DNA from: Promethearchaeota archaeon
GTDB lineage: Archaea; Asgardarchaeota; Lokiarchaeia; Sigyniarchaeales; SOKP01
Assembly (NCBI GenBank): GCA_048937405.1
Contig: JBHLNF010000001.1
Coordinates: 416,001-480,000, forward strand
Reading direction: 5' to 3'
Length of the DNA: 64,000 nucleotides
Shown here: positions 10,204-17,058 of the stretch, piece by piece
Numbering within the stretch: the stretch's first letter is position 1
How the letters are laid out: each line of letters begins with the position of its first letter
Made by a program: the position numbers and the translations under genes
Notes under the pieces: model-generated
The model's input: only the letters and a program-made list of their open reading frames with translations
Told to the model about the DNA's origin: nothing
Database searches by the model: none

Positions 10204-11018
10204 TTATACCCATTCTTCTTTTAAAATATTTCCTTTTATACCTACGACAACTAATTTAATTGGAACTTTTCTACTTGCTCGTTTAGTCGCTTCTTGAGCT
10301 AAAGCTAATAGACCAGAACAACAAGGAACTTCCATAATAACAACTGTAAGTGTATTTATTTTTGCATCATCAATTAGAGTCTTTATTTTTTCTATATACA
10401 CTTCTTTGCCTTGGTCGAGTTTGGGACAAGCTATTGCGATTGACTTTTGTTTCATGAAATCTCTATGAAAATCCCCATATGAAAATCCTACACAATCTGC
10501 TGAAAGCAATACATCAGCTCCTTGGTAATAAGGTGCTCGAGGATTAATTAAATGCATTTGAACAGGCCATTGTCTTAACGCAGAAGGGATTGTTCCTGAT
10601 ATTTCTGTTTGTGTTTCTGGTCCCTCAAAAACCATTGTTTGAGCAGAAGGACAACCACAATGAGAGTTATTATCAGAAAGAATTTCCTGCATTTGTCCCA
10701 TTTTAGTTTTTTCATTTTGTTTCATAGATTCTAAATGTTTCTCAACAGCCTCCTCATCAAATTCTAAAGCTTCCCTTTCAATTATTTCAAGTGCCCCCTC
10801 AGGACAACCAGAAATGCATGCTCCAAGTCCATCACAGAAAACGTCGTTTATTACCCTCGCTTTTCCGTCGATAACTGCGAGCGCGCCTTTTATGCTATAT
10901 AAATCATTCTTTATATTACTGCACAGTCGACTACGCAATTACCACATCCAGTACATAGATCTTCATCAATCTTGATTATTTTTCTTTTTAATAATTTTTG
11001 TTGTTTTACTTCAGTCAT
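10204..11018 (-). CDS. [4Fe-4S] ferredoxin-domain Fe-S protein, 261 aa after removing a 29-nt insert (exons 11018-10919 and 10889-10204)
   Basis: Exon 1 is MTEVKQQKLLKRKIIKIDEDLCTGCGNCVVDCA; the join gives CAEGALAVIDGKA; then CDGLGACISGCPEGAL, QWPVQ, ACPKLD, MEVPCC. The ORF track misses exon 1. Confidence 0.85.
10890..10918 (-). other. candidate BHB/BHL-type pre-mRNA intron (29 nt)
   Basis: Sense GUGC-AG^U-AAUAUAAA-GAAUGA-UUUAUAUA-GCAU-AA^A; GUGC pairs with GCAU; removal restores frame and CAEGAL. Confidence 0.75.
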
Positions 11019-16632: not shown

Positions 16633-16888
16633 AAAACAAAAAATTGATTAGTTTATAAAATTCATTAGCTTATAAAACCAAAAATAACAAAATCTTCTTT
16701 ATTTTATGTAATATACTTACCCTTTATTTCAATTTAATAGATTTTATTCAAAATAATAGGTTAGATTATTATTTGTTTAATCTAATTGGATCAATTTATA
16801 AAATATTAAATTAATATATTTAATATATTTTCAATTTCAAACCATATAATCAAATTCTACAACTTAAAATTAAAAGGATGTGTTAAAT

Positions 16889-17058
16889 TTGGCAAAATGG
16901 GAATGTCAAGCTTGTGGATATGTTTATGATGAAGAAGCTGAAGGTACAAAATTTGAAGATTTACCAGACGATTGGACTTGTCCTGTATGTGGCGTAGTCA
17001 TGATAGGATCTCCCATTATGGCGTAAGAAAGGACATGTTCGAGAAGATTGAAGGTTAA
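16889..17058 (+). CDS. rubredoxin, 46 aa after removing a 29-nt insert (exons 16889-16997 and 17027-17058)
   Basis: Spliced product [46 protein letters not shown]; TTG start. Confidence 0.88.
16998..17026 (+). other. candidate BHB/BHL-type pre-mRNA intron (29 nt)
   Basis: GCGU-AG^U-CAUGAU-AGGAUCUCCC-AUUAUG-GCGU-AA^G; GCGU pairs with GCGU; removal gives CGVGKDMF. Confidence 0.75.

Follow-up and report, generated by a model that had tools for sequence, protein, structure and literature searches.

A small gene of an Asgard archaeon raises the question of how a complete rubredoxin can be made when the reading frame is broken close to its 3′ end. The gene lies at 16889–17058 of the window, by which we mean the whole stretch of 64 000 nucleotides analyzed here, taken from the genome of a Loki-type Asgard archaeon (G000). 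In agreement with the preliminary description, the break was found right after the residues CPVCGV: the frame of the window translation is open through these residues and then continues as VMIGSPIMA to a TAA at 17024–17026, ending at the predicted 3′ splice site, while the KDMFEKIEG tail lies 29 nt later in another frame and ends with its stop codon at 17058. When exactly 16998–17026 is deleted, a Gly codon forms across the junction as G|GA. A 7-nt direct repeat is present at 16990–16996 and 17019–17025, and the interrupted gene is the sole free-standing rubredoxin gene of the genome. We propose that the segment 16998–17026 constitutes a bulge–helix–bulge (BHB) intron in the rubredoxin pre-mRNA, with cleavage and ligation predicted from the sequence, and we give this reading a probability of about 85%. 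The features of the locus, together with those of a second intron in the same window, are collected in Table 1.

Table 1. Features of the interrupted rubredoxin gene, its predicted RNA fold and related elements in the window
Feature	Coordinates	Strand	Remarks
Pyridine-nucleotide oxidoreductase with C-terminal rubredoxin domain, 450 aa	15107–16459	+	Adjoins the rubredoxin gene
Rubredoxin exon 1	16889–16997	+	Pfam Rubredoxin positions 1–42 matched; ends with the first base of a Gly codon (phase 1)
Candidate BHB-type intron, 29 nt	16998–17026	+	In-frame TAA at its end in the unspliced reading
Rubredoxin exon 2	17027–17058	+	Remaining two bases of the split Gly codon, then KDMFEKIEG and a stop
Central helix H, 5′ strand (exon), 4 bp	16992–16995	+	Pairs with 17021–17024; MFE fold and alignment
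Central helix H, 3′ strand (intron)	17021–17024	+	MFE fold and alignment
5′ bulge AGU, 3 nt	16996–16998	+	MFE fold; predicted cut after 16997
3′ splice-site AAG in 5-nt loop strand	17025–17027	+	Predicted cut after 17026
Intron hairpin h′	16999–17020	+	6-bp stem, mismatch, two G–C pairs, 4-nt loop
Outer exon–exon stem, 5′ strand	16972–16984	+	Pairs with 17030–17042; MFE fold
Outer exon–exon stem, 3′ strand	17030–17042	+	Pairs with 16972–16984; MFE fold
Second candidate BHB-type intron, 29 nt, in a 4Fe-4S ferredoxin-domain gene	10890–10918	−	Exon 1 at 10919–11018, exon 2 at 10204–10889

The start codon of the rubredoxin gene is TTG at 16889 in G000, as also in its relative G002, with ATG used in most relatives, and a GTG at 16880, 9 nt upstream of the TTG, is a possible alternative start. 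The adjoining oxidoreductase is likely the redox partner of the rubredoxin and was also found upstream of it in L074 and L075, which are the two loci of relatives reaching that far. A small rubredoxin-like gene seen upstream in L075 was considered and rejected as an unrelated paralog having no intron. Upstream of the rubredoxin gene, at 16769–16850 of the window, the contig word depth rose 5- to 30-fold in all four sequencing runs (to ∼130–675, compared with ∼5–70 beside it), and many contigs stop at 16786–16836, just before the gene begins; this segment looks like a multi-copy AT-rich repeat.

The extent of the insert could be defined using the intron-less relatives. Seventeen congeners (16 genomes and G056) are uninterrupted at the site, where their sequence is ...GGy GTn GGn AAr GAy ATG..., and only the exact removal of 16998–17026 restores this sequence in G000, with a shift by a single base failing to do so. 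Having been seen in only one of the 18 congeners that possess the gene (G000), the insert was then found in further interrupted genes: two (L059 and L060) were retrieved by scanning metagenome contigs with a pattern allowing any gap of 24–50 nt at the site, and six more, with their DNA as L072–L077, by a protein search using the unspliced reading frame. All nine alleles carry an insert of 29 nt at the identical position and in the identical phase, and they fall into two sequence types. The expectation that relatives would contain homologous inserts with covarying stems was thereby borne out by eight further alleles, in which site, length and fold are kept, and cutting at the proposed positions gave the predicted CGVGKDMF in each of the nine. 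A scan of species-representative genomes for an insert at the rubredoxin site found none, and scanning such genomes for the conserved intron core gave ten bacterial matches, which by our estimate is about what would be expected by chance. The nearest relatives G001 and G042, both with fragmented assemblies, gave no rubredoxin match.

The pattern of sequence variation among the nine alleles shows which parts of the gene are constrained as protein. In the spliced frame the variable sites of exon 2 are distributed 0/0/7 over the three codon positions, for which the chance by our own arithmetic is (1/3)^7 or ∼5e-4; all nine alleles translate in this exon to GKDMFEKI followed by either E or D, and none of them contains a frameshift or a stop. 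For exon 2 to be readable in this frame, 3n+2 bases would have to leave the message. The intron has 20 variable sites, with a 7/5/8 distribution among the three phases and no codon periodicity, and is thus predicted to be translated in no frame.

These data bear directly on the idea that the unspliced product would itself be functional, as a rubredoxin having its C-terminal tail replaced by VMIGSPIMA, with the old tail left behind in the 3′ UTR. The unspliced mRNA still codes for the complete set of four Cys ligands, which lie ahead of the insert, and this must be counted as a point against the splicing reading; in addition, the new tail is about as long as the old one, and gene callers have annotated the product as a 45-aa protein in several metagenomes. 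The new tail is, however, poorly conserved, with 297 nucleotide differences in non-synonymous codon changes compared with 41 in synonymous ones when summed over allele pairs, and in three alleles it continues into a different and longer tail, whereas the old tail, supposedly untranslated, is perfectly conserved at the protein level. We consider a functional unspliced product very unlikely, with removal of the insert from the mRNA as the better explanation.

The predicted structure of the transcript also points to splicing. The MFE fold of 16970–17045 matched the proposed structure exactly (z = −2.5), with 2 out of 200 shuffled sequences folding as well. The central helix, 5′ bulge, intron hairpin and exon–exon stem of the motif as originally put forward were all recovered in this fold, but its 3′ part had to be revised, as the AAG at the 3′ splice site forms no closed 3-nt bulge. 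This site instead lies in a 7 × 5 nt internal loop with no adjacent outer helix, and the motif should therefore be regarded as a relaxed (HBh′) one: measured against a strict BHB motif, in which two 3-nt bulges on opposite strands are separated by a 4-bp helix, both the helix and the bulge on the 5′ side have the canonical form and the 3′ side is relaxed. The length of helix H is 4 bp in six alleles and 3 bp in the other three (L060, L076 and L077), in which the first pair is mismatched. The outer stem is paired in 95% of cells across the nine alleles with zero pairs changing on both sides, and it is present also in the intron-less relatives; judged from the sequences, it is compatible with the model, not proven. 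The relaxed 3′ site, the 3-bp helix H of three alleles and the outer stem without compensatory change are all points that speak against the splicing reading. This exon–exon stem is built from two near-palindromic codon stretches, encoding W-T-C-P and K-D-M-F, and as a pre-existing structure it may have predisposed the site to tolerate an intron.

Evidence for conservation of the inner helices came from covariation, determined using an ungapped alignment of the nine intron alleles. Standard pairs were found in 91.7% of cells, as compared with 37–45% when the partners were slid by 1–3 columns. Five pairs change on both sides, four of which are in the intron hairpin h′ and one in helix H. The latter is the second pair of the helix (alignment columns 24/54), being C–G in five alleles and U–A in four, and here a synonymous C/U difference in an exon Gly codon is matched by G/A in the intron. 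The covariation score was 0.238, with at most 0.105 for the slid versions and none of 500 shuffles reaching the observed value, to be read with the nine alleles being mutually related and of roughly two intron types, such that the covariation events are fewer than the cell counts suggest. RNAalifold independently predicted the same helices.

Translational recoding would be another way of reading through the gap, either by bypass between two GUA codons or by a frameshift inside the insert. Phage T4 gene 60 is an example of translational bypass, and the likeness to that system lies in a short non-triplet gap containing a hairpin and a stop, with matching flanking codons in some alleles. In the rubredoxin gene of G000 the matched GUA codons are found at 16994–16996 and 17023–17025, the hairpin follows the possible take-off site and the stop codon ends the gap. 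Bypass nonetheless predicts the wrong residue at the junction, since landing on the second GUA yields Arg and thus CGVRKD in place of the conserved CGVGKD, as had been noted before for a simple deletion of the TGGCGTA repeat. Moreover, four of the nine alleles (L060, L074, L076 and L077) lack the second GUA and hopping would there be impossible. A frameshift would require translation of the insert, contradicted by the even spread of its variable sites over the three phases, and the covarying helix between exon and intron has no role in either of these models. Recoding of any such kind we therefore regard as highly improbable when set beside splicing.

It could also be argued that the insert is a mere scar at the DNA level in a gene that is dead or in decay, left by transposon excision or by a small duplication with a direct repeat of 7–8 nt on its flanks, and that its fold is fortuitous. 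Such a scar would explain the direct repeat flanking the insert (7 of 8 nt in G000, 8 of 8 in L072 and L075), its palindromic nature, which resembles remnants of nearly-precise excision, and its absence from the closest congeners. Furthermore, in this AT-rich genome BHB-like folds often arise by chance: a blind genome-wide scan for BHB geometries that would join two long open frames gave counts equal to those obtained with slid partners, the background being made up mainly of adjacent genes, and introns near gene ends escape such a scan. However, a scar in a decaying gene is hard to reconcile with an exon 2 that stays intact in nine diverged alleles with changes at third codon positions only, with a fold kept through compensatory changes, or with the interrupted gene being the only free rubredoxin gene of the genome. 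The flanking repeat is missing in four alleles, and when the genome was searched for further copies of the 29-nt insert or of its two ends, only chance matches of ≤12 nt came up, with no source element or sibling intron. With this evidence taken together, we find it most unlikely that the insert is a scar, and favor a spliced intron.

Finally, an assembly or sequencing artefact in one genome bin, a formal possibility only considering that one of 18 congeners has the insert, is of negligible probability, as independent Logan contigs from three public sediment runs of two studies (X1, X2 and X3) cross the insert with 0 differences and homologous inserts occur in eight other assemblies from different projects; the insert is thereby confirmed as real DNA and an artefact ruled out. 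Contig ends lacking the intron, found in X2 and X4, differ at 8–10 positions within pieces of ∼100–135 nt and are, by these differences, attributed to relatives.

Taken as a BHB intron, the insert would be removed as follows. The transcript would fold such that the last exon bases (16992–16995) pair with the 3′ end of the intron (17021–17024), with this helix being flanked on one side by the intron hairpin together with the 5′ bulge and on the other by the loop that holds the 3′ site, and with the exon–exon stem closing the whole structure. An alpha/beta splicing endonuclease (EndA) would then cut after the second nucleotide of each bulge, i.e. after 16997 and 17026, and the ligase RtcB would join the exons, thereby recreating the Gly codon and the reading frame. 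Cleavage between the second and third bulge nucleotides is the established mode for BHB motifs (PMC2738675).

The genome has the genes that such a reaction would require. Two EndA paralogs were found, alpha on contig C27 (74 kb) and the beta-like one on contig C8 (5 kb). The alpha paralog has kept the catalytic Tyr, His and Lys, has the Aeropyrum pernix alpha subunit as its best solved match, and conserves, in the Crenarchaea-specific loop, the residues equivalent to K44 and R46; in the second paralog the catalytic His is missing, and it resembles a structural beta subunit. RtcB is also encoded (565 bits). From these genes, we predict that the organism has a crenarchaeal-type alpha/beta EndA able to cut relaxed motifs, together with RtcB. 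The Crenarchaea-specific loop and its K44 confer broad substrate specificity on EndA (PMC3241643), heterotetrameric enzymes cut relaxed motifs in the cbf5 pre-mRNA (PMC2738675) and non-canonical motifs are cut only by (αβ)2 and ε2 enzymes (PMC5829648). The original proposal of a tRNA-type (BHB) intron in an mRNA is thus supported by the congener sequences, the covariation, the constraint on exon 2 and the EndA and RtcB genes.

The rubredoxin gene had been presented as an isolated case, which could not be upheld, as inserts of ∼30 nt were found in ferredoxin-domain, pfk, rnhB and uppS genes as well. The ferredoxin-gene intron lies directly after the fourth Cys codon, its removal restores DCAEGAL, and two of its stem pairs are compensated; it was found in five genomes (G000, G001, G042, G056 and G045) and is absent from ∼24 congeners. 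Among single-copy housekeeping genes, pfk has a 31-nt insert within its most conserved motif, GGGDCPGLN (contig C25, ∼148990–149020), and rnhB a 29-nt insert within its own, DEAGRG (contig C25, ∼104578–104606), both with the same helix and bulge geometry as in rubredoxin. A third such gene, uppS, contains a 30-nt insert having an in-frame stop within the conserved DG|NRR motif (contig C17, ∼187200, minus strand), being a candidate by its sequence. A junction of the form ...GGCGnAG|UCAUG is common to the pfk and rubredoxin introns. Judging from these inserts, several mRNAs appear to be spliced in this organism, those being rubredoxin and at least four other protein genes.

The tRNA introns of the genome, for example in tRNA-Gly(GCC) and tRNA-Thr(UGU), have the same geometry with similar bulges, and as in rubredoxin they show four helix bases and then two bulge bases before the cut. 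Using ARAGORN, only 21 tRNA genes were recognized in the 4.5-Mb genome, which is rated as 100% complete, and an intron was called in 15 of these 21; the majority of tRNA genes are probably interrupted to such a degree that they escape recognition.

The distribution of the rubredoxin intron among relatives is patchy. Flank identities of 85–92% were found for pairs having and lacking the intron, namely L059 compared with the intron-less G019 (L008), at 92%, and L074 compared with G017 (L005), and a comparison of G000 with the intron-less G002 (L002), made in the coding sequence only, gave 91% identity. G056 has the ferredoxin-gene intron in common with G000 but not the rubredoxin intron. This interleaving of alleles with and without intron among close relatives implies either repeated exact loss or spread between species, as far as can be deduced from the sequences. 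A gene tree built from 25 rubredoxin sequences gave p-AU 0.34 for the intron having arisen only once, with the gene being too short to resolve the matter, and because this tree comprises only 126 nt, one gain followed by several exact losses is not separable from spread between species.

How the intron could have arisen is suggested by its similarity to the preceding exon. The last 8 nt of exon and intron are alike in one of the intron types (7 of 8 in G000, 8 of 8 in L072 and L075), and the remainder of the intron is likewise collinearly similar to the exon next to it (16969–17026 of the window, L072 and L073), more so than column-permuted controls (joint permutation p ∼0.008), with no such resemblance to other exon windows. 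The intron may thus have arisen at this very site, through a tandem duplication that copied ∼30 nt from the exon before it. The exon stretch in question has at its end the 4-mer GCGU, which could pair with its own copy through G–U pairs, and contains a near-palindrome that could become a hairpin; the duplication would automatically create a cleavable BHB motif with cut sites restoring the original message. The signal is modest and derives mainly from 3–4 alleles related to each other, the four alleles of the other type lack it, and no exon-duplication signal was found in the introns of the ferredoxin, pfk or rnhB genes. We hold this origin as a tentative idea, somewhat unlikely to be correct. 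In a preprint of 2026 on the introns of Asgard tRNA genes, the question of intron origin is described as open (bioRxiv 10.64898/2026.10.13.758758). If true, duplication would provide a concrete DNA-level route for the birth of endonuclease-type introns in Asgard genes.

Among known systems, HAC1/XBP1 mRNA splicing in eukaryotes is carried out by Ire1 with either a tRNA ligase or RtcB, and is stress-regulated. The proposed reaction would resemble it in that a protein endonuclease cuts structured sites in an mRNA, an RNA ligase rejoins the ends and the C-terminal frame is changed; Ire1 and its stem-loop motif are unrelated to the present system and we claim no membership. A close parallel is the cbf5 pre-mRNA intron of Crenarchaeota, a short BHB intron in coding sequence (Watanabe 2002; Yokobori 2009, PMC2738675). 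Shared with that system are the short BHB intron in a protein-coding sequence, the often relaxed motif, cutting between the second and third bulge nucleotides, a host with a heterotetrameric alpha/beta endonuclease and patchy presence or absence among related species. In contrast, the gene in this case codes for rubredoxin, a 5-kDa redox protein, the host is a Loki-type Asgard archaeon, the length is fixed at 29 nt, several such introns are found in one genome and splicing is here deduced from sequence. The cbf5-type family is that of introns at the cbf5 catalytic Asp codon in Desulfurococcales or Sulfolobales, to which the rubredoxin intron does not belong, and the rubredoxin proteins of the relatives are named Promethearchaeota or Lokiarchaeota. 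By analogy, the rubredoxin intron would work like the cbf5 intron, not being homologous to it.

Another substrate of the splicing endonuclease within an mRNA is Haloferax volcanii HVO_1309, with a BHB intron in the 5′ UTR confirmed by circRNA sequencing and in vitro cleavage (PMC7714728), but that intron is located in an untranslated leader and interrupts no reading frame. Archaeal pre-tRNA introns agree with the rubredoxin intron in motif geometry, in size range and in the enzymes presumed to act on them, and also show repeated lineage-specific gains; the difference is that the host RNA is here a messenger, whose reading frame therefore constrains correct excision. Many introns in Asgard tRNA genes are described in the preprint mentioned above, with mRNA introns not being mentioned there (bioRxiv 10.64898/2026.10.13.758758). 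In the literature that we searched, BHB splicing in coding sequence was confirmed only for cbf5, in addition to the one 5′ UTR intron (PMC2738675, PMC7714728).

The rubredoxin intron would accordingly be a case of a known mechanism at work in a gene and a lineage that are both new to it. Protein-coding genes of archaea are treated as uninterrupted in the literature searched, and a tRNA-type intron is here predicted in a small and well-understood gene of an Asgard archaeon, Asgard archaea being the prokaryotes closest to eukaryotes, with unusually clean evolutionary evidence for its removal from the mRNA. Gene callers mis-annotate genes of this kind as truncated or frameshifted. Because the congeners differ in presence or absence of the intron, and because the intron-less sequence is known exactly, the locus should be tractable for studies of how such introns are gained and lost.
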